Assembly (NCBI GenBank): GCA_000002435.2
Contig: CM018793.1
From: Giardia intestinalis
Lineage: Eukaryota
Direction: 5' to 3' (one strand)
Length of the DNA stretch: 64,000 bases
Numbering within the stretch: the stretch's first letter is position 1; the number at the start of each line of letters is the position of its first letter. Below, in pieces: positions 16,588-24,683 of this stretch. Position numbers and translations under genes: made by a program. The notes under the pieces are model-generated. The model made no database searches and was not told the DNA's origin. It saw only the letters and a program-made list of their open reading frames with translations.

Positions 16588-19500
16588 ATGACACACAACC
16601 AAGGCGCTGCTGGCAGCGAGCTGGACTTTAAAGTGCTTTTTGCGACTTCTGAAGAGCCAGGTTATAAGGCAGAACGGCTTCTAGAGCACAATGTACTAGG
16701 GTCAGGTTGGCGCTCTCTGCGGAGGTGCTCCTATCCTCAGAGCATTGCAATCTCACTCGGTCAGGTTTATAAGATTCAGGCTGTTCAATTTACAACGCAC
16801 GAGTTCTTGGTTCCTTCGTTTGTGGAGCTTCTCCTATATAACCCTCAACAGCAGGCGTGGGAGACCATTGGCAAGGTGCAGATGGGGAAGGATGGGCGGC
16901 CGACAGCCGGGCGTGAACGAAAGACAGTCAAGATAGACATAAAAACAAATGCTCTACGATTCATTCTCCATCAACCCTTACCTCATCAGAATAATAATTA
17001 CAATCAAGTGAGCATCGCTGCCATTACCGTGCTTGGAAACCCAGCTCCCACAGATATCCGTCCCACAACACCGCAAATCGGTCATCCCATTGTCTCTCGT
17101 AGCAAGCGAGGAACGACTAAGCCCTTGTCAGGACCTTCACAGGACAATTCAAGACAATCGAGTAATGGATCTTCTTACGCTGGTGCAGCCAAGGCACAGG
17201 CCCAGATGGCTCCCACTCCGGGCGTCTTGCCGCAAATACTCAATCCACCGGATAGTGGCGACTCTCAGGCCAGCAGAGGGCATTCATATTTAGAGAAGGG
17301 AGAAGAGCTCCGGACGGAGATAATGATTAACAAAACTAAGGCTGCAGCTGCAGAAGACTTTCTACTGGCAGACAGATATAAGATAGCCTATGACGCGCTA
17401 GGCTCCCTACTTGTGGACTACGCATCTCTGGATGAGCGGAAGGCTGCTGCTATTGCTGCTGAAAATTACAAAGGTGCACACGAGATCAAGACAACGATGA
17501 AAGAAGTGGAAAACATCCTTCAGCTACCGTTAGAAAAGCTTGTGAGGATGCTCAACGGAGAGCCAGAGCCGCCGTCCCCCAAGGTAGCACCACCAACCTC
17601 TCTAAATAAAGGATCGAAACCTAAGCATCAAGTAAGTTATCAAACTCTAGAGCCAATGGGAGAGAACGCCGACGAAAACGAAGACGATCTCACGACCAAT
17701 GATATCGGAGGAGCTCCCCCAGATGCAGCTTCCAAGCAGGCTCGCGCTAACAGCAGGCCACGCTCAAGGATGAAGGCGTCTGGAGTGAGCGACACTGAGG
17801 ATCTCTCTAGAGCAGTGCCTACCATATCAAATAAGGATATTATTAACGAAAATGGCGAGCGAATGCTCCATAATAACAATAATGGTTATCAGCAATTCTT
17901 CCTTACCGAGGAAGAGAAGCGAGAGCTTGAACAGGAGAGGAAGGAGAACTACATGCGCCGACGAGGAACGAACCTTGCTGCGAGCATGATGACAAAGACG
18001 CGGACGTTGACAGGCAACTCTACTGGGGCTGGAGGGAGCGAGGAGCTCGGTGCATCCACTCGTATGCGTCAAGGGGTTACCAAGTCCCAAGTTACCAAGT
18101 CGCAGTTGGCCAAAACTGGAACAATGCAACAGTTTTCTTTCGATGATGAACTTAATAATATAACCAGTAACAGAGACAAAGAGACTGCACCACCTGAATT
18201 ACCAGGGAGTGTCATGAGGGGGAACAACGCAACTAAGCTGAAGGATGCTGGGTTCAATGAGATGTACATTAGACTTGCTTACTCTTCAAATAAGGGAAAC
18301 GTCATAGATGCCATAAATTTAATGATACGCGCTCTCGTTCACGATCCTGTCGCATTCTATCCTGCAGGCATTTCTCTAATAACAATCATTTCCGAGTCTA
18401 CCAATACAGCACTGATAGGCTTGATAGGCAACCTCTTCTGCCATGTCTATCTGGCCATAATGAGAAAATACAGAGGAGCACCCAATGGTGGAGAGCTTGT
18501 GGGTACCGTTACACAGACGAAGAACACTGTGGTAGACGCTGGGGATATGACCTTGACATTTCTAGATGTCACGGCACAGCTCACTCTGCAGAAGGAGAAT
18601 GCTGTGACATATGCTGAGTTGAAGTGCACATCTGAACGGACTGTGGAAAAAGCTATCGGCCAAAACATGTCCAACTTACACAATGATGTGCTTCTACTGC
18701 TGGCACCTATCATCCACAAGCTCTCAGACAGTCAGCGGAGGACAAAAATCAATTCCATTAACATGTTGGCCACTGCCTCAACGTTCCCCTTCTTTCCCAC
18801 ATTCAACTTTGTGAACGCCATTATCTCCAGGCGATCCATAGAAAAGGCCTCTGGACTGGCTCAGAATGAGCTGTCCTTTCAAAACCAAAAGCTCATATAT
18901 CTAGTAGAGACCCGCAGCTGGGCGACTGCAATATTAATAACAGGAAATCAGAGGCTTATGACAAAAGATACCATTCCTGTACTGCGAGCATATATAGAGT
19001 GGATTATTCCTCACGCTACTAAGCAAGAACAGAAAAAGCCTGCGACAGACATCCTTATCGCCATGTATGGTAGCTTATTGTCTGACATGATTGGAATCAC
19101 AAACGCCGTCGAATGTGCGAACAAGGCATGCACGACAGAAGCCATTCTCAAAACCATCTACAAGGCAATGGTAGAGTGTGATAAAAAGCTAAGCATCAAG
19201 CCGCCACGGGTAAAGCTTCTCCCTCCCTCAGCTGACGCACCTGCAGGCAAGCTGGTAATAAACATGAAGCCGTCGCTATCAAGTCGTCCATCATCTCCCG
19301 ATTATAAGCGAGACACTGCAGCTGGTCACGAGGGATACAGTGCACATAGTATGGATGGTATAGATAACGCCCGTGCTCAACAATATCAGCACCAAAGCGG
19401 AGGCAATCAGCAAGAGCTTACTGCAGTCGCAGAAACTGTTGCTGACGACGATGACCCCCAGTACGGAGATTTTCCCCCTGGGGTGTGTCAGTTTTGTTTA

Positions 19501-19920
19501 GAGGAATGCGGACAACAGGAGGACATGGCCCTCAATATGTACCGGCACCTGCTCATCAAGTGCCCGTGCTGTTGTGCTTGTCCAGCGTGTGAAGCCATAA
19601 TAGAGATACCATGTCTGCCTGAGCACATGATTTACGAGTGCACGCACAAGGGCAAGCTGCAGTACTCGTTAGACTTATGTAAGAATTGCAGATGTATCAT
19701 AGAATCGAAGTACATGGCAAGTCACATGGTGACATGCAAAACTATACTGGGAGAGGAGGAAACGATATGTCCACTTTGCGGAGAGCTCCTTCCCAATAGC
19801 GAAGCTGCGCTCACCCATTATAGCGACGGAGAGGGATGCCCTGGCAATCCTCGAACTGCTGCTAATTTACGTACCGTGGTCTCGAACAAGGTGAACTCCA
19901 TTAGGCGCGGCCCGCAGTAA
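16588..19920 (+). CDS. CEP104: CEP104-like centriolar/ciliary tip protein
   Basis: The N-terminal jelly-roll region matches CEP104: 'GWRSLRRCSYPQSIAISL' vs human 'GWRSPRFCQFPQEIVLQM', and 'LRFILHQPLPHQNNNYNQVSIAAITVLGNP' vs 'LKLIFHQNHVNKYNIYNQVALVAINIIGDP'. The C-terminus carries a Cys/His zinc-finger array as in CEP104. ATG verified. AGTAAAC overlaps the TAA stop. Confidence 0.7.
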   Translation: MTHNQGAAGSELDFKVLFATSEEPGYKAERLLEHNVLGSGWRSLRRCSYPQSIAISLGQVYKIQAVQFTTHEFLVPSFVELLLYNPQQQAWETIGKVQMGKDGRPTAGRERKTVKIDIKTNALRFILHQPLPHQNNNYNQVSIAAITVLGNPAPTDIRPTTPQIGHPIVSRSKRGTTKPLSGPSQDNSRQSSNGSSYAGAAKAQAQMAPTPGVLPQILNPPDSGDSQASRGHSYLEKGEELRTEIMINKTKAAAAEDFLLADRYKIAYDALGSLLVDYASLDERKAAAIAAENYKGAHEIKTTMKEVENILQLPLEKLVRMLNGEPEPPSPKVAPPTSLNKGSKPKHQVSYQTLEPMGENADENEDDLTTNDIGGAPPDAASKQARANSRPRSRMKASGVSDTEDLSRAVPTISNKDIINENGERMLHNNNNGYQQFFLTEEEKRELEQERKENYMRRRGTNLAASMMTKTRTLTGNSTGAGGSEELGASTRMRQGVTKSQVTKSQLAKTGTMQQFSFDDELNNITSNRDKETAPPELPGSVMRGNNATKLKDAGFNEMYIRLAYSSNKGNVIDAINLMIRALVHDPVAFYPAGISLITIISESTNTALIGLIGNLFCHVYLAIMRKYRGAPNGGELVGTVTQTKNTVVDAGDMTLTFLDVTAQLTLQKENAVTYAELKCTSERTVEKAIGQNMSNLHNDVLLLLAPIIHKLSDSQRRTKINSINMLATASTFPFFPTFNFVNAIISRRSIEKASGLAQNELSFQNQKLIYLVETRSWATAILITGNQRLMTKDTIPVLRAYIEWIIPHATKQEQKKPATDILIAMYGSLLSDMIGITNAVECANKACTTEAILKTIYKAMVECDKKLSIKPPRVKLLPPSADAPAGKLVINMKPSLSSRPSSPDYKRDTAAGHEGYSAHSMDGIDNARAQQYQHQSGGNQQELTAVAETVADDDDPQYGDFPPGVCQFCLEECGQQEDMALNMYRHLLIKCPCCCACPACEAIIEIPCLPEHMIYECTHKGKLQYSLDLCKNCRCIIESKYMASHMVTCKTILGEEETICPLCGELLPNSEAALTHYSDGEGCPGNPRTAANLRTVVSNKVNSIRRGPQ

Positions 19921-21514
19921 ACAGATATGCTACTTCTAGCGTGTTGTCCGTCCGCACCATAACATTCATAGAGAGCTGCTTCTGGGTGTGAGATGAATAT
20001 TTTATTTTTAAAATCTCACCATCGTAAATCTGAGAGGCAGATTGTAAAGTATTTTGGACGTGTTCTGTTTCATCATTCGTTCCTGGCGTGGAACTATCAT
20101 CCGTCCACCCTGAAGGCGTATCATCTTCATAAAGTAGCACACCGTCCCCGTAAATCGCAGAGATGGTAGAGGAAAATTCTTTAGTAAGATACTCGATAAC
20201 AGCATCAACGGAAAGGGGAGGTACATCCTTCACTTTCAGAATGTAGTAAGGGACACTGCATACGACACAGGCTGGATTTGAGGGTCGCAGATCATCGTTT
20301 ATCAGCAATGTCCTTCTAGAGTTCTTAATGAAGTGCTGAAGAGAAATAGCTGTGCGGTGCTGCTTGGTTATGAGGGAAGAGAAGATCATGTGGGCGAGCT
20401 TCATTGCTAGAGCAGCTACTGCAGCATTGGTGAATGTTACAGCGGGGACGATTGATCCTGCCAGAGTACTGAGCTCAAACGGAGTAAGCGTCGTAGTGAT
20501 TCCGAACGAGTGCATCCGCAACACTGAAAGGCCTGCAACGAGAGCGACCAGGTGAGGATTGTCTCTGTCATACGTGGTAAGGGTATACGCCTTACATGCA
20601 ATGGATCTTGCAAGCGCTGTAGCGCTGATGAACACTTCCTTTAAAGCCTGCTCAACGGACATATGCTCATGTAAAGTATAGCTAACCGAGAGAGATGTCT
20701 GCTTTATGCAGGGCTGAATCGCTCCGTCTTCGTGCTCTGATGCAGCCAACAAATGAGTAACAGCTTGCCTTGCCTTATTTATGTCCTCCATGTCCAGCAC
20801 TGCAGAGGCGGATGGATTGTCTAAAAGGTGAGTTTTGAAGCTATAGTAGAGGAAGCGAGCTAACTCAGATAAGAGCTTGTCAATCGAGCCACTACAGTCA
20901 ATAGGTGTGTACTCAGTGAGTTCGGAAAACGGGTCAACGTCGTACATACGCTGCACAAGAAGAATGGAATAACTGACACAGTGCTCGGGCCGCGTCGGCT
21001 TATTCTTCATGGTACATATAGGAATGTCTATACGTGTGTCCCTATTATAACAGTTATAGCACTCTACTGTCGGGTCCTCGGACAGCCAGTACAAAGCAGG
21101 AGGGTAGCCAGTCACGGAACCAGACAGGCCAGATGTCCCAGCATCTACCAAAAGTTTATTGGCGAACCAGCACATCTCACCCACATATTGCCTGGGAGCG
21201 AAGGCGTCAAGACACGTTACGGTGACATCATATTGAGAGAAAAAGGACGGACCAAAGCGCTTTGGGTTGATAACCGTCTCACTATAAGAGTTAACCCTTA
21301 GTGATGGCGCCTTTGCCCTGAGATAGTCCGCAGTGACATGTGCCTTCTCGCGACCCACGTCGTCCCTACTGTAGAGAAACTGACGATTGATATTCGAAAG
21401 CTCAATGCTGTCCATGTCTATGACTGCTACAGAGGCATAGCGAGCGGGGGCCTGGACAACCAGCTTCGCAACCTCGCACCCAATCCCGCCGCACCCGACG
21501 ATGCACAGATTCAT
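19901..21514 (-). CDS. UBA2: SUMO-activating enzyme subunit 2 (UBA2/SAE2, ThiF/E1 family)
   Basis: 'IVGCGGIGCEV...IDMDSIELSNINRQFLY...DVGREKA' is the E1 adenylation motif. 'ECYNCYNRD...ICTMKNKPTRPEHCVSYS' matches the SAE2 zinc/catalytic-Cys region 'ECYECHPKP...GCTIRNTPSEPIHCIVWA'. 'PACVVCS' matches 'PNCYVCA'. ATG verified. Confidence 0.7.
   Translation of the reverse strand: MNLCIVGCGGIGCEVAKLVVQAPARYASVAVIDMDSIELSNINRQFLYSRDDVGREKAHVTADYLRAKAPSLRVNSYSETVINPKRFGPSFFSQYDVTVTCLDAFAPRQYVGEMCWFANKLLVDAGTSGLSGSVTGYPPALYWLSEDPTVECYNCYNRDTRIDIPICTMKNKPTRPEHCVSYSILLVQRMYDVDPFSELTEYTPIDCSGSIDKLLSELARFLYYSFKTHLLDNPSASAVLDMEDINKARQAVTHLLAASEHEDGAIQPCIKQTSLSVSYTLHEHMSVEQALKEVFISATALARSIACKAYTLTTYDRDNPHLVALVAGLSVLRMHSFGITTTLTPFELSTLAGSIVPAVTFTNAAVAALAMKLAHMIFSSLITKQHRTAISLQHFIKNSRRTLLINDDLRPSNPACVVCSVPYYILKVKDVPPLSVDAVIEYLTKEFSSTISAIYGDGVLLYEDDTPSGWTDDSSTPGTNDETEHVQNTLQSASQIYDGEILKIKYSSHTQKQLSMNVMVRTDNTLEVAYLFTAGRA
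19916..19922 (+). promoter_or_regulatory. poly(A) signal AGTAAAC (AGTRAAY) overlapping the TAA stop of the CEP104-like gene
   Basis: Exact AGTRAAY match with the stop codon embedded. It lies inside the last codons of the convergent UBA2 gene. Confidence 0.5.
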
Positions 21515-21539
21515 TTATCACATTTACACTCATACTTAA

Positions 21540-21941
21540 TCAGAGACTGTTGAGCTTCGAAAGGTGCTCTTCGCATTCGTTGGATGCAGGGTGTCCAGAC
21601 CAGACCAGCTCCCCATCCTTGTTGAAGAGGAAGGCAGCAGGGATGCCCTTGCAATTGTTCTTCTCCATAAGGCTGCGGACCTCCTTGTTCGTGTCACAGG
21701 CCACGTTGTACTCCTTCATGTGGGAGATGCGAGAAGCAAACCCCTCGACGGTCGCAACATCCTCCTCGGAGACGCTCACAAGGTATACGTTGGGGTACTT
21801 GGTCGGGATCTTTGCAAGGTGCGGGATCATGCCTCGGCAAGGCGGGCACCAGGTTGCAAAGGCCTCGACCATGTAAGACATTCCGGGCCTGTACTCCTGG
21901 ACCTTATTTACGTAGGTCAACGCATTGATATCAGGCAGCAT
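21540..21941 (-). CDS. thioredoxin
   Basis: 133 aa with the 'WCPPCRGM' (WCxPC) active site and thioredoxin-fold spacing. ATG verified and preceded by 'ttcttaaaa'. Confidence 0.7.
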   Translation of the reverse strand: MLPDINALTYVNKVQEYRPGMSYMVEAFATWCPPCRGMIPHLAKIPTKYPNVYLVSVSEEDVATVEGFASRISHMKEYNVACDTNKEVRSLMEKNNCKGIPAAFLFNKDGELVWSGHPASNECEEHLSKLNSL

Positions 21942-22062
21942 TTTTAAGAAAAAACCAGAAATGATTGGTCACAGGAGAAGGTCGAATTCAAATCTTATGA
22001 ATCCACAACGTTGGCATAGGAACCACCCTGTCCTGTTCTACCCTGCATGTCCTGCTAGAGGC

Positions 22063-23061
22063 CTAAGAATACCAAGACCCTGTTTGTGGAACCTCTGTCG
22101 TGTCAGCTGCACAGATGAGGCCCACAGTAGACGAGTTTAAAGGTTGTGGTGCCATAGAGTCTAGTCCAGAAAACAGTCTTGTGGTCCCTGATAGATATGT
22201 GGGAGGTGGGGTGATAGCATGGATCTCACCGTCAACGCCACTGGTACGTGGCCGTTGTGCTTGCAGACGAGAGTGACTAGCAGATTGACAACTGAGGGAG
22301 GCCTTTAATTTGTTCTGAAGGCGATATTTTTGTAATTTAGATTGAACGTGTTTCTGCGTGAGATCAGGGTAAAAAGGGCTCATAAAGCGGAGGATCCTAA
22401 CGGGTGTAGGGACCTCCCCGATGATGCTGTTGTATGCTCGCACAAAGAGGTCATTCATTTCTGGAGTCCAAACAATGCGGCTGGATGCCTTGCATGTCCT
22501 TTCGTTGCGCTTAGAGGAAACCTCAAGGCCTCTAAGAGGTACGTTGTTTAGCTTGGAATGACTCTTTTCAGAGACGCCGTTGATGGCCTTGCTTTTGCTG
22601 ATAGGTACGGGCGAGAGTATAGATGCAGATGCAATCGTGGTGTTGGGCTCTAGGTCGGAGGCGTAAGTATAGGTCGGAGAAGATGACGTCATAACACCTC
22701 CCTTGCCATAATACTGAGGATGTCTAGTATTCTCCTCAACTGCTCCCTCCGCATGAGCAGATTGATGGTCTTCCTCCGAGGCTCTCAACTCAGCTCTAAA
22801 CGGCATCAACTCCAAATATCTAAAGGAGACAGAAGGATTTATCCCTTTACTAGCTGGTTGTGAAGAGCGCTTGAGCGACTTGCAGACTGAGAGGAAGTTC
22901 TTCTGGAATACACTCCGTGAAATGAAAAAGCAGTCTTTCGGCAGCAGCTTTCTCAGCTCCTCAGAATAAAGACTAGTTGGCATGGGTGTGGTGTGCTCCA
23001 TTAACCCCGTGCTTTGGTCATCAATGGTTGCGTCAGACTCATCGATCAATCTTCTCTCCAT
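22063..23061 (-). CDS. GARP/SHAQKYF-class Myb-like DNA-binding protein (GLP1-like)
   Basis: 'RIVWTPEMNDLFVRAYNSIIGEVPTPVRILRFMSPFYPDLTQKHVQSKLQKYRLQ' matches the GARP consensus 'R.VWT.ELH..FV.AV..LG...AtPK.IL..M.V.GLT...V.SHLQKYRL'. Three in-frame ATGs (23142, 23097, 23061). I chose 23061 because it follows an AT-rich tract and avoids overlap with the upstream gene. The longest ORF runs to 23142. Confidence 0.5.
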   Translation of the reverse strand: MERRLIDESDATIDDQSTGLMEHTTPMPTSLYSEELRKLLPKDCFFISRSVFQKNFLSVCKSLKRSSQPASKGINPSVSFRYLELMPFRAELRASEEDHQSAHAEGAVEENTRHPQYYGKGGVMTSSSPTYTYASDLEPNTTIASASILSPVPISKSKAINGVSEKSHSKLNNVPLRGLEVSSKRNERTCKASSRIVWTPEMNDLFVRAYNSIIGEVPTPVRILRFMSPFYPDLTQKHVQSKLQKYRLQNKLKASLSCQSASHSRLQAQRPRTSGVDGEIHAITPPPTYLSGTTRLFSGLDSMAPQPLNSSTVGLICAADTTEVPQTGSWYS

Positions 23062-23093
23062 TTTTTTGAATTTACAACCCAATTTCAAAAAAA

Positions 23094-24683
23094 TCATTGG
23101 GGAAACACGGTCTTGAAAGATGATGCAGCTGCCTCGCTGCATTTAGGACAACATATGTCTATAGCCTTTAAGTCCTTCCAGCACTCATTGCAAAAGACAA
23201 GGCTGTTACATTTCGTGCACAAAATAGTCTTTTTTTTGCTCTGACAATGCAGACAATTGAACTTTTTTTTGAGATCAAAGTTCCCAGCATCAGCGAGCAG
23301 CATGTTGCGCAAGTTATCGTTAGTGCGTTTGCTAGACTTTAACATGGTACTAAGAGTCTCATATTTCTGAAGTACTGCTCCGTGGGACCCCGTGTGTGCT
23401 TTAAGCTGTTGAATACGCTGCTCAAGACCACCTGCAGCACGAACATCTTGTGTCTTTTCAATGGCTTTCAGTCTAGTATACGTCTCCATCACACCCCTCA
23501 TAACCCCATTAAGCTTTGCAAAGCATTCATGAATATTGTTACATTCTGCATTCTCAAGGAGACCATTATTTTGCAATAACTCCAGCAGCTTTTTACCCTC
23601 GGCCAGTGCGTCATCAAAGATCGCAAGTTTTGCGCTAATCTGCTCATACCCTTCATTAGCCTCGTCCTTCAGTGCCCTTATTTCCTTAGCTATCTCACTG
23701 TTCTTCTGTGACAGTTGATCTCTTTTGTCAATCAATCTTGCATTCTGCAGCTTCACCGATGCCAGTTTGTTGGCCCTTGCTATTAGTAAATTCTGCAGGT
23801 GGACATTTTCTTCTTGCAGCTTGTGTACTTTGCCCATGGCCATCTGATCTACCGAGTTACTGAGGGCAGCTAGAGAGCCGTACTCCAGGTTGTCAATCTC
23901 TCTAGCTCCGCTTGCTCTCACCATAAAGTCAAGCATTTGACCAGCTCTCCATCTTTCTTTATCATCTGCAAATAGAGACCTTTCAAAGATCTGCCTGAGG
24001 TCATCTGACTGAATACCTTGGAGGCTGGCCCTGTCGACTCCATGAGTTAGATCCCTAAACGTAGCCATTTGGTAGAGAATACAACATACCTGATTAACAA
24101 TATGTGCATCGATATCCTGGTTGTTGTACTCCCGTGGCGTGCTGTTTGCTATTTCGGGAATCAGCATCCACAAACCCGCAAGCGAAAACGATGTCAGCGC
24201 GCTGTCGCAGGTTATGGTGTCAAGTGATATGTCGGTGATATTGCAGATTGGCACGTCCGGCCCTGTGCCACGCTGCTTCTTGCGTGGGTGGTATACATAC
24301 ATTAATGCCGAAAGGATCTGTGCCCCACAGGTCAAGACGTTCCTGGGAGAAAAGGGCTTACCCTCAGCTGCATGCGCCTGAACGAGTGTGGATAGCTGCG
24401 TGCGTAAAGGGCCGTGCTCCACATAAATAGAATTGCTGGCAGTGGAGATAATACATCTGGACGGGCTCTCAATATATTGGTGGTGCATGTCTACTAGGAG
24501 GCTGAGATCATAGGCTATTTGAGCCGGCGTACGGCCAGTATTGGGGTTATAAACTAATGAAGTCACTTCTTTCTGCCCAGTGTCGTTGGTGTCGTGTAGT
24601 GCATCAACCTCTGACAGAGGGAAACTGTCGAAGGGAGCATTTGGGTTGAGACTCTCTACAAGCTTAACTCGCGGAAAAAGCAT
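23094..24683 (-). CDS. degenerate kinase-like N-domain + coiled coil + C-terminal Cys-rich zinc finger protein
   Basis: ATG verified. The N-terminal ~250 aa carry remnants of kinase C-lobe motifs ('LAGLWMLIPE' ~ APE region) without a Gly loop or HRD. Central heptad repeats. C-terminus 'CLHCQSKKKTILCTKCNSLVFCNECWKDLKAIDICCPKC' is RING/B-box-like. Confidence 0.35.
   Translation of the reverse strand: MLFPRVKLVESLNPNAPFDSFPLSEVDALHDTNDTGQKEVTSLVYNPNTGRTPAQIAYDLSLLVDMHHQYIESPSRCIISTASNSIYVEHGPLRTQLSTLVQAHAAEGKPFSPRNVLTCGAQILSALMYVYHPRKKQRGTGPDVPICNITDISLDTITCDSALTSFSLAGLWMLIPEIANSTPREYNNQDIDAHIVNQVCCILYQMATFRDLTHGVDRASLQGIQSDDLRQIFERSLFADDKERWRAGQMLDFMVRASGAREIDNLEYGSLAALSNSVDQMAMGKVHKLQEENVHLQNLLIARANKLASVKLQNARLIDKRDQLSQKNSEIAKEIRALKDEANEGYEQISAKLAIFDDALAEGKKLLELLQNNGLLENAECNNIHECFAKLNGVMRGVMETYTRLKAIEKTQDVRAAGGLEQRIQQLKAHTGSHGAVLQKYETLSTMLKSSKRTNDNLRNMLLADAGNFDLKKKFNCLHCQSKKKTILCTKCNSLVFCNECWKDLKAIDICCPKCSEAAASSFKTVFPQ

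Follow-up and report, generated by a model that had tools for sequence, protein, structure and literature searches.

Messenger RNAs of Giardia intestinalis are monocistronic, carry 5' untranslated regions (UTRs) of 1-14 nt, and are translated without scanning (PMC3610916). In the work of Xu et al. 2020, 626 start codons of isolate WB were re-annotated by means of orthologue alignment and an A-rich motif (PMC7000408). At the other end of the mRNA, AGURAA serves as the poly(A) signal, and a distance of 13-15 nt from its first A to the cleavage site was reported for AGUAAA (PMC9014877).

Among plant GARP proteins, ARR1 recognises the bases GAT through Ser283, Gln286 and Lys287 (PMC10801921), and in LUX, Gln193 and Lys194 read bases (PMC7104408); the signature His is structural in both proteins (PMC10801921 and PMC7104408, respectively). 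Giardia possesses GARP-like proteins as well. GLP1 was reported to bind the cwp1 and ran promoter regions, GLP4 was reported to be an encystation repressor, and the literature contains GLP3 (GL50803_9154) in addition. An RNA-seq study counts GLP2, which has the identifier GL50803_88945, with the factors whose induction comes late in encystation (21 h; PMC8700996). We show herein that a minus-strand gene in a 64,000-nt stretch of contig CM018793.1 (the window) is glp2 of G. intestinalis WB, and we argue that only one of its three in-frame ATG codons is credible as a translation start.

The open reading frame (ORF) at 22063..23142 (-) has 359 codons, with in-frame ATGs at 23142, 23097 and 23061. 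Its most likely coding form occupies 22063..23061 (-) and specifies 332 amino acids followed by a TAG stop at 22065-22063. This product is an exact match of XP_001707530.2/KAE8305884.1 ("GARP-like protein 2"), and a start at ATG 23142 instead yields 359 aa that exactly match the superseded XP_001707530.1 and AAV88045.1. Because both products match GLP2 records exactly, the gene is GLP2 rather than a new relative of GLP1. The earlier note had held that the motif was reported once in Giardia, in GLP1; this has to be corrected, as the gene itself is the published and annotated GLP2 (AAV88045.1, XP_001707530, GL50803_88945), and GLP3 and GLP4 are known too. Both the gene and its corrected start were already known, and the current reference annotation has the third ATG. 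Full-text searches of the searchable literature found no dedicated functional study of GLP2 and no direct functional data. The original deposit, AAV88045.1, dates from 2006 and reportedly goes with the GLP2 paper of Sun, Su and Gillin (Mol Biochem Parasitol 146:45).

Identity to the P15 "GARP-like protein 2" is 85%, and the gene order (RING-like gene, GLP2, thioredoxin-like gene, ThiF/E1) is kept at all 8 orthologous loci, so that both identity to the named protein and gene order place the locus in the GLP2 orthologue group. The upstream neighbour, GL50803_006291 (GL50803_6291; 23094..24683, -), codes for a 529-aa hypothetical protein whose C-terminal part carries a RING-like Cys motif. Its product exactly matches XP_001707529.1 and scores 21.9 bits against PF13920 (zf-C3HC4_3), under the cutoff of 27, and the gene is syntenic at all loci.

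GLP2 carries a plant-type GARP/SHAQKYF-class Myb-related domain (22315..22482, -; aa 194-249 of the 332-aa protein), as had been proposed from the peptide VWTPEMNDLFVRAYNSIIGEVPTPVRILRFMSPFYPDLTQKHVQSKLQKYRL, which is indeed present in the ORF translation. The profile TIGR01557 (myb_SHAQKYF) matched over positions 2-56 of 57, with 36.8 bits for the whole protein and 41.2 bits for the domain alone (cutoff 29.3; E = 3.6e-9). Significant sequence matches in the PDB (phmmer) were confined to PHR1, PHR2, ARR1, LUX and ARR10, all plant GARP proteins, with E about 1e-7 against PHR1 and ARR1, and the nearest named relatives in an exhaustive search of representatives came from plants and green or red algae. 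The AlphaFold2 model reached a pLDDT of 71-92 only in the GARP region, where three confident helices span 200-212, 220-227 and 236-261. The best 14 PDB fold matches found by Foldseek were all plant GARP domains (PHR1, ARR1, PHR2, LUX), superposing with TM 0.72-0.87 (domain-only chains) and an rmsd of 1.4-2.1 A. Together, the AlphaFold2 model and Foldseek recover a single Myb-like helix-turn-helix fold with three helices in about 55-60 residues. Pfam-A, on the other hand, returned neither Myb/SANT (PF00249) nor any other family for the whole protein at E<=1 or the domain alone at E<=10, and the precomputed Pfam assignment is empty for all GLP2 orthologues. We regard this miss as a failure of sensitivity, because TIGR01557, the phmmer search of the PDB and the fold search agree. 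Thus, of the two profile searches suggested in the earlier note, that with Myb_SHAQKYF bore the domain out and that with PF00249 did not.

The domain is nearly invariant among orthologues whose overall identity is only about 50%. The recognition-helix motif S241-K-L-Q-K-Y-R247 (22321..22341, -), the counterpart of plant SHLQKYR, aligns with ARR1 SHLQKYR and agrees with the signature SH(A/L)QK(Y/F) at five positions out of six. The exception is the His, for which all GLP2 orthologues have Lys (Lys242); its partner His in helix 1 is Asn203 in GLP2. The S, Q and K that contact bases are present. In a second conserved block (22870..22971, -; aa 31-64, LYSEELRKLLPKDCFFISRSVFQKNFLSVCKSLK), many columns of the orthologue alignment are invariant. 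Pfam gives no match to this block, and AlphaFold2 places only low-confidence helices there (34-39 and 49-60).

In WB, the TGA stop of the upstream ORF (23096-23094) forms ATGA with the ATG at 23097-23095, a start at 23142 would give a 49-nt overlap with the upstream coding sequence, and ATG 23061 directly follows the tract AAATTCAAAAAAA. All of this, including the ORF and its three in-frame ATGs, had been described before and can be seen in the minus strand and the ORF list. ATG1 (23140..23142, -), the start of the superseded 359-aa model, is made up from the Lys-Cys codons AAA TGC in the zinc-finger motif of the upstream gene. ATG2 (23095..23097, -) exists only because the upstream stop is a TGA with an A before it, and appears to be incidental, not a start. 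ATG3 (23059..23061, -) is the conserved and currently annotated start. The N-terminal peptide belonging to the extended model reads MQRGSCIIFQDRVSPMIFLKLGCKFKK. By hand arithmetic from base composition, p(ATG) is about 0.016 per codon, so that the 27 upstream codons are expected to hold about 0.43 in-frame ATGs, and the probability of at least two is about 0.07; the two extra ATGs are not beyond chance.

Comparison with the 8 orthologous loci, from 5 other lineages, separates the three codons. ATG3 is the sole one conserved, being present in all eight. In each of these loci a stop closes the frame 15-75 nt before ATG3, and no in-frame upstream ATG occurs outside WB. ATG1 is lost in L002 (AATTGT) and L003 (AAGTGC), and elsewhere an in-frame stop precedes ATG3. 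ATG2 is absent in four of the five other lineages, which have ATAA or GTGA instead, and out of frame in the fifth. Two 99%-identical A-type strains, L007 and L008, have T8 where WB has T7, which throws both upstream ATGs out of frame but keeps ATGA. Hence orthologues do not conserve an overlap with a downstream start, as stop-start coupling would demand, and the in-frame state of ATG 23142 and ATG 23097 is, on this alignment, an accident of the WB lineage.

The sequence context points in the same direction. The 15 nt upstream of ATG3 contain 9 A, which ranks in the top 1% of the 417 internal ATGs of the window; the corresponding counts are 2 for ATG2 and 4 for ATG1, the latter typical of internal ATGs. 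A position-specific start-context matrix, built from 28 long ORFs of the window with EM-style refinement, scored ATG3 at 3.9 versus 5.2 for ATG1 and 7.3 for ATG2. This small matrix even preferred an internal ATG at 22983, and was discarded in favour of upstream A counts because it was overfitted. Visual inspection of the 65 nt before ATG3 revealed no encystation-type Myb2 site (C[T/A]ACAG). The shortening of the reference model from 359 to 332 aa (XP_001707530.1 to.2) is consistent with the start revision of PMC7000408. The "three alternative starts" of the earlier note probably come down to one, ATG 23061, as both upstream ATGs are absent or out of frame in other lineages and lie inside the upstream mRNA, and the annotation has been revised. 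The puzzle of overlapping genes would then be a mis-start of the kind corrected in 626 WB genes, and the 27-aa extension of AAV88045.1 should be left out of GLP2 expression constructs.

Poly(A) tags provide evidence on the neighbour's 3' end. The 3' UTR of GL50803_6291 measures 26 nt in WB, 26 nt in AS175 and 100 nt in P15 (Franzen et al. 2013, Table S1); after correction for the truncated gene model of P15, its value points to the same C as the others. This C, at 23068 (-), is the published poly(A) site, and the seven A's that come next make the exact cleavage base ambiguous. The two ORFs do not share one mRNA, as the upstream mRNA ends before ATG3 according to the published tags from WB, AS175 and P15. 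A TGTAAA at 23071..23076 (-), which appears to be a one-off variant of AGURAA, probably acts as the poly(A) signal; the mapped site lies 8 nt after its first base, a distance that grows to as much as 15 nt if the transcript includes bases of the A-run. Against AGURAA, TGTAAA is non-canonical. The stop-to-start junction between the thioredoxin-like and ThiF genes contains TGTAAAT in the window and the P15 locus, AGTAAAT in an assemblage-B-like locus and one further lineage, and TGTAAAC in another (gapped alignment). Neither glp2 nor GL50803_6291 is present in the supplements of a nanopore 3'-UTR paper, and an Rfam scan of the whole window gave no match.

Two other starts have to be weighed against ATG 23061. 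Were ATG 23142 the true start, the protein would have 359 aa, and its first 16 codons would share DNA with the final 49 nt of the upstream gene, read in a different frame. In WB the frame is indeed open from this codon onwards, and this start was used in the original deposit (AAV88045.1) and the 2007 genome annotation (XP_001707530.1). Nonetheless, we consider it very improbable: the triplet falls across Lys-Cys codons of the upstream gene and is lost in two lineages, the extension is shut by in-frame stops in 8/8 other loci, and a frameshift lies between it and ATG3 in 99%-identical strains. Moreover, with 4 A in the preceding 15 nt, ATG 23142 does not follow an A-rich tract, its position is inside the upstream mRNA, and RefSeq has switched to the 332-aa model. 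The alternative that the ATGA at 23097-23094 couples stop to start, with reinitiation on a shared transcript yielding a 344-aa protein, draws on the fact that the overlap exists with ATG 23097 in frame in WB, and on the automated gene callers that picked this start on 175 Logan contigs. Its probability appears close to negligible, as other lineages have ATAA or GTGA, L007 and L008 keep an ATGA that is out of frame with glp2, and an upstream mRNA polyadenylated about 26 nt past its stop in three isolates cannot encode GLP2; nor does coupling suit mRNAs that are monocistronic with very short leaders (PMC3610916). Reinitiation at the ATGA and a WB-specific long isoform were both rejected on comparative and poly(A)-site evidence.

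A further question is what the domain of a protein starting at ATG 23061 does. ARR1 S283/Q286/K287 and LUX Q193/K194/R146 align with GLP2 S241/Q244/K245/R195. By analogy with these plant proteins, GLP2 would most likely bind DNA through its three-helix Myb-like fold, with helix 3 (S241-K-L-Q-K-Y-R247) placed in the major groove, Ser241, Gln244 and Lys245 predicted to read a GAT-type core, and Arg195 of the N-terminal arm predicted to touch the minor groove. The DNA target and a regulatory role are predicted too. Specificity may differ from that of the plant proteins, because the signature His is Lys and the Pfam Myb model misses the domain. On a rival view, the GARP-like domain has diverged so far that it is perhaps no GAT-reading factor and binds, for example, chromatin or protein partners. 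The missing Pfam match, the changes of the SHLQKY His to Lys242 and of the helix 1 His to Asn203, and the fact that direct functional data on GLP2 were not found in the searchable literature lean that way. We nevertheless think it rather unlikely, since GLP2 and its orthologues all keep the Ser, Gln and Lys that read bases in plants, as well as the arm Arg, the fold matches that of plant domains in complex with DNA at 1.4-2.1 A, constraint on it is far above that on the rest of the protein, and the related GLP1 and GLP4 have been reported as DNA-binding regulators. For the DNA specificity of diplomonad GARP proteins, the His-to-Lys change is a modest lead that can be tested.

The preferred reading, with translation beginning at ATG 23061, draws attention to the junction between the two genes. 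Since only ATG3 is credible and the upstream mRNA ends at C23068, the coding regions lie 32 nt apart. Here lies the block TTGTAAATTC-A7-TGGA (23057..23077, -), which contains the neighbour's putative poly(A) signal variant and its cleavage site, the A-rich tract and the start codon of glp2. Six sequences from 5 lineages differ in this block by nothing but the length of the A-run. In the 4.9 kb of aligned locus, only five invariant runs reach 11 nt or more, AAAAAAATGGA among them. Transcription of glp2 would start in the A-rich, initiator-like tract AAATTCAAAAAAA directly before ATG 23061, and the start codon would be set by the transcription start because 5' UTRs are 1-14 nt and scanning does not occur; ATG 23142 and ATG 23097 would both lie within the GL50803_6291 mRNA. 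Because the block holds the neighbour's TGTAAA and its poly(A) site, one transcript would end where the next begins, within the same 21 nt, and the glp2 promoter would be squeezed into 32 nt shared with the neighbour's polyadenylation site. We hold this explanation as a whole (GLP2 identity, the start at ATG 23061, the shared junction block and the mode of DNA binding) with considerable confidence. The stretch for poly(A) signal and cleavage overlaps the initiator-like tract of glp2, and the block may conceivably be bifunctional, with 3'-end formation of GL50803_6291 mechanistically coupled to glp2 initiation, for example through polymerase hand-over or mutual interference. Such coupling is speculation and on balance doubtful; if true, it would account for a nucleotide conservation tighter than that of the GARP-domain codons.

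How does this locus compare with known systems? The current RefSeq model of GLP2 has the same amino acid sequence and neighbours, with no difference from the locus described here, and the sole difference of the old 359-aa model is its 27-aa N-terminal extension. The mis-assigned WB starts of Xu et al. 2020 follow the same pattern, an over-long start without the A-rich motif giving way to a downstream A-rich ATG. GLP1 (GL50803_7272) and GLP4 share the family label and the organism with GLP2, but are different genes, likened to it by label alone. With the plant GARP proteins (ARR1/ARR10, PHR1/PHR2 and LUX), GLP2 shares a single three-helix Myb-like domain at 37-46% identity, an R-x-x-W arm, and the S, Q and K of helix 3 that read bases. 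GLP2 differs in having SKLQKYR for plant SHLQKYR, EMN for ELH in helix 1, and a 2-residue insertion in the loop between helices 2 and 3; it has neither the receiver domain of ARR-B nor the coiled coil of PHR proteins, and is predicted by AlphaFold2 to be disordered outside the GARP domain.

An open reading frame (ORF) of 359 codons occupies 22063..23142 on the minus strand (ORF table, and a reading of the minus strand over 21800-23500). It contains three in-frame ATG codons, at 23142 (ATG1), 23097 (ATG2) and 23061 (ATG3), the last directly preceded by AAATTCAAAAAAA. The upstream ORF, 23094..24683 on the same strand, ends with a TGA (23096-23094) that forms an ATGA with ATG2; initiation at ATG1 would produce a 49-nt overlap with this gene. 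Minus-strand reading and ORF table confirmed all coordinates of the earlier note, and its peptide is present in the translation. By exact-sequence look-up, the 332-amino acid (aa) form from ATG3 is "GARP-like protein 2" (XP_001707530.2 / KAE8305884.1), the 359-aa form from ATG1 is AAV88045.1 and the superseded XP_001707530.1 (ATCC 50803), and the 344-aa form from ATG2 was found only among automated calls on Logan assemblies. The same look-up gave GL50803_006291, a hypothetical protein, for the upstream gene. Close relatives of the 332-aa product are confined to Giardia, and it is 85% identical to "GARP-like protein 2 [Giardia lamblia P15]". The window is therefore from G. intestinalis WB, and the gene is not new: it is glp2 (GL50803_88945), reported as induced at 21 h of encystation (PMC8700996). 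The statement that the motif had been reported once in Giardia, as GLP1, is out of date, as the gene itself is GLP2, and GLP3 and GLP4 are also found in the literature.

The junction was compared among orthologous loci of P15 (assemblage E), a human-gut metagenome contig that is assemblage-B-like, two lineages of about 50% identity (two samples each) and a strain 99% identical to WB (two samples). Gene order was unchanged in every locus, and the upstream gene of the metagenome locus encodes 528 aa, the length listed for isolate GS. In the junction alignment, ATG3 and the block TTGTAAATTC-A(7-9)-TGGA were the same in all loci. ATG2 was confined to A-type strains, the other lineages having ATAA or GTGA at this site. 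ATG1 is the A-TG of AAA-TGC (Lys-Cys) in a Cys motif of the upstream gene, and is gone where these codons read AAG-TGC or AAT-TGT. A frame check found no in-frame ATG upstream of ATG3 in any of the eight other loci, all of which have an in-frame stop 15-75 nt upstream of it. Even in the 99%-identical strain (L007/L008), a T8 run in place of T7 between ATG2 and ATG3 (window 23086-23092) puts ATG1 and ATG2 out of frame. Within lineages, the T-run after the upstream stop varies (T6/T7/T8), as does the A-run before the glp2 ATG (A7/A8/A9), and both differ between two samples of one lineage (L005 3950-4001 vs L006 490-540); the 10 nt between the runs never changed. Such variation between samples fits non-coding sequence, as expected. 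Of the 15 nt before ATG3, 9 are A, a count equalled or exceeded by only 1% of 417 internal ATGs of the window; ATG1 and ATG2, with 4 and 2, are ordinary for internal ATGs. A small PWM/EM start model was uninformative.

The 5' UTRs of Giardia mRNAs are 1-14 nt long, with no ribosome scanning (PMC3610916), so the start codon follows from where transcription begins, at A/T-rich initiator elements (PMC3280250). The 3' UTR of GL50803_6291 was reported as 26 nt in WB, 26 nt in AS175 and 100 nt in P15 (PMC3610916, Table S1). Counted from the upstream stop in the window, 26 nt leads to C23068 as the poly(A) site, with the A7 run and then ATG3 directly after it. For P15, the 100 nt run from the end of a truncated gene model (L001:3894) and lead to the same C (L001:3994), which is also 26 nt from the aligned stop. 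The poly(A) signal of Giardia is AGURAA, with cleavage mostly 13-15 nt from the first A of AGUAAA (PMC9014877); TGTAAA at 23076-23071 (minus strand), one base off this consensus and at a compatible distance, is a candidate signal.

With the poly(A) site at C23068, both ATG1 and ATG2 lie inside the upstream mRNA. The three ATGs, which the earlier note took as alternative starts, do not represent a choice of starts, and the ATGA is a coincidence specific to one lineage. Stop-start coupling at the ATGA was considered and ruled out, since the upstream mRNA ends ahead of ATG3 and cannot encode GLP2. With ATG3 as the start, the two coding regions are 32 nt apart (23093-23062), and the same 32 nt would hold the 3'-end signals of the neighbor and a putative glp2 initiator. 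In the 2020 re-annotation of WB, 626 start codons were corrected using orthologue alignment and an A-rich motif before true starts (PMC7000408), and the shortening of XP_001707530 from 359 aa (.1) to 332 aa (.2) is consistent with that revision. Our analysis independently arrived at ATG3, in agreement with the current annotation.

In a 4.9-kb alignment of the locus from five lineages, 44% of columns were invariant, and only five invariant runs reached at least 11 nt; two of these are AAAAAAATGGA at ATG3 and ATAAATGAATCT at the start of the ThiF/E1-like gene, and none fell within the GARP codons. The gap between the thioredoxin-like (Trx) gene downstream of glp2 and the ThiF/E1-like gene (window 21507-21540) is 25 nt and contains TGTAAAT followed by the invariant ATAAATGAATCT spanning the ThiF start. 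In a gapped alignment, this site between stop and start reads TGTAAAT in the window and P15, AGTAAAT in the assemblage-B-like locus and one further lineage, and TGTAAAC in another. The layout is that of glp2: a poly(A)-signal-like motif abutting the next start.

Several features of the neighborhood were also recorded. GL50803_006291 is annotated inconsistently ("hypothetical" in WB, "Variant-specific surface protein" in DH), its P15 model (504 aa, L001 2380-3894) is truncated and follows another reading frame near the 3' end, and its C-terminal CxxC-rich region gave a sub-threshold RING match (PF13920, 21.9 bits vs a cutoff of 27). The ThiF/E1-like gene (19901..21514, minus strand) and the convergent CEP104-like gene (16588..19920, plus strand) overlap tail-to-tail by exactly 20 nt (window 19901-19920), as they do in all five other lineages (L001 7145-7164, L002 4948-4967, L003 5411-5430, L005 7157-7176 and L007 7142-7161). 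The 28 ORFs of at least 200 aa in the window, mutually non-overlapping by a 30% criterion, are closely packed with several short gaps. Rfam gave no family at gathering score in window 1-64000.

The assignment to the GARP/SHAQKYF class was borne out. Of the profile searches proposed, NCBIfam TIGR01557 (myb_SHAQKYF) recovered the domain at aa 194-249 (numbered from ATG3) with 36.8 bits (cutoff 29.3), whereas Pfam-A gave no family for whole GLP2 (E<=1) or the domain alone (E<=10). A phmmer search of PDB sequences (E<=0.01) returned plant GARP domains only (PHR1, PHR2, ARR1, LUX and ARR10-B; E 1.4e-7 to 4e-4). An AlphaFold2 model from six orthologues was confident only at about aa 193-260 (pLDDT below 50 elsewhere), with three predicted helices at 200-212, 220-227 and 236-261. 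The best 14 Foldseek matches in the PDB were all PHR1, ARR1, PHR2 and LUX, and the following ones had E above 1; domain-only chains gave target-normalised TM 0.72-0.87, rmsd 1.4-2.1 A and 37-46% identity. When 1.84 billion representatives were searched exhaustively, 57 matched at E<=1e-3, and the named organisms among the best ten were land plants, one green alga and one red alga. Together, these five lines of evidence support the presence of a GARP domain in GLP2.

Several of the closest non-Giardia relatives of the domain, metagenome or Logan proteins (P0025, P0028 and P0029), carry two tandem GARP-like repeats (e.g., ...VQSHHQKYQL twice). A second strongly conserved block of GLP2, LYSEELRKLLPKDCFFISRSVFQKNFLSVCKSLK (aa 31-64; window 22870-22971, minus strand), matched no family and has low-confidence predicted helices only; it may serve in partner binding or regulation.

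In the SHLQKY motif of ARR1, Ser283, Gln286 and Lys287 read the bases G-A-T (PMC10801921), and in LUX, Gln193 and Lys194 read bases and the N-terminal arm places Arg146 in the minor groove (PMC7104408). Ser241, Gln244, Lys245 and Arg195 of GLP2 align with these contact residues, and all four are invariant in the orthologues. By analogy, we infer a GAT-type DNA target for GLP2. The loop between helices 2 and 3 is two residues longer in GLP2 than in plant GARP domains. GLP2 has Lys242 (window 22336-22338, minus strand) where the plant SHLQKY has His, and Asn203 (EMN; window 22453-22455, minus strand) in place of the helix-1 His of ARR1 (ELH). In ARR1, the helix-1 His hydrogen-bonds the signature His (PMC10801921). 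Both replacements occur in all GLP2 orthologues, and the two positions, in the domain core, seem to have changed as a pair.
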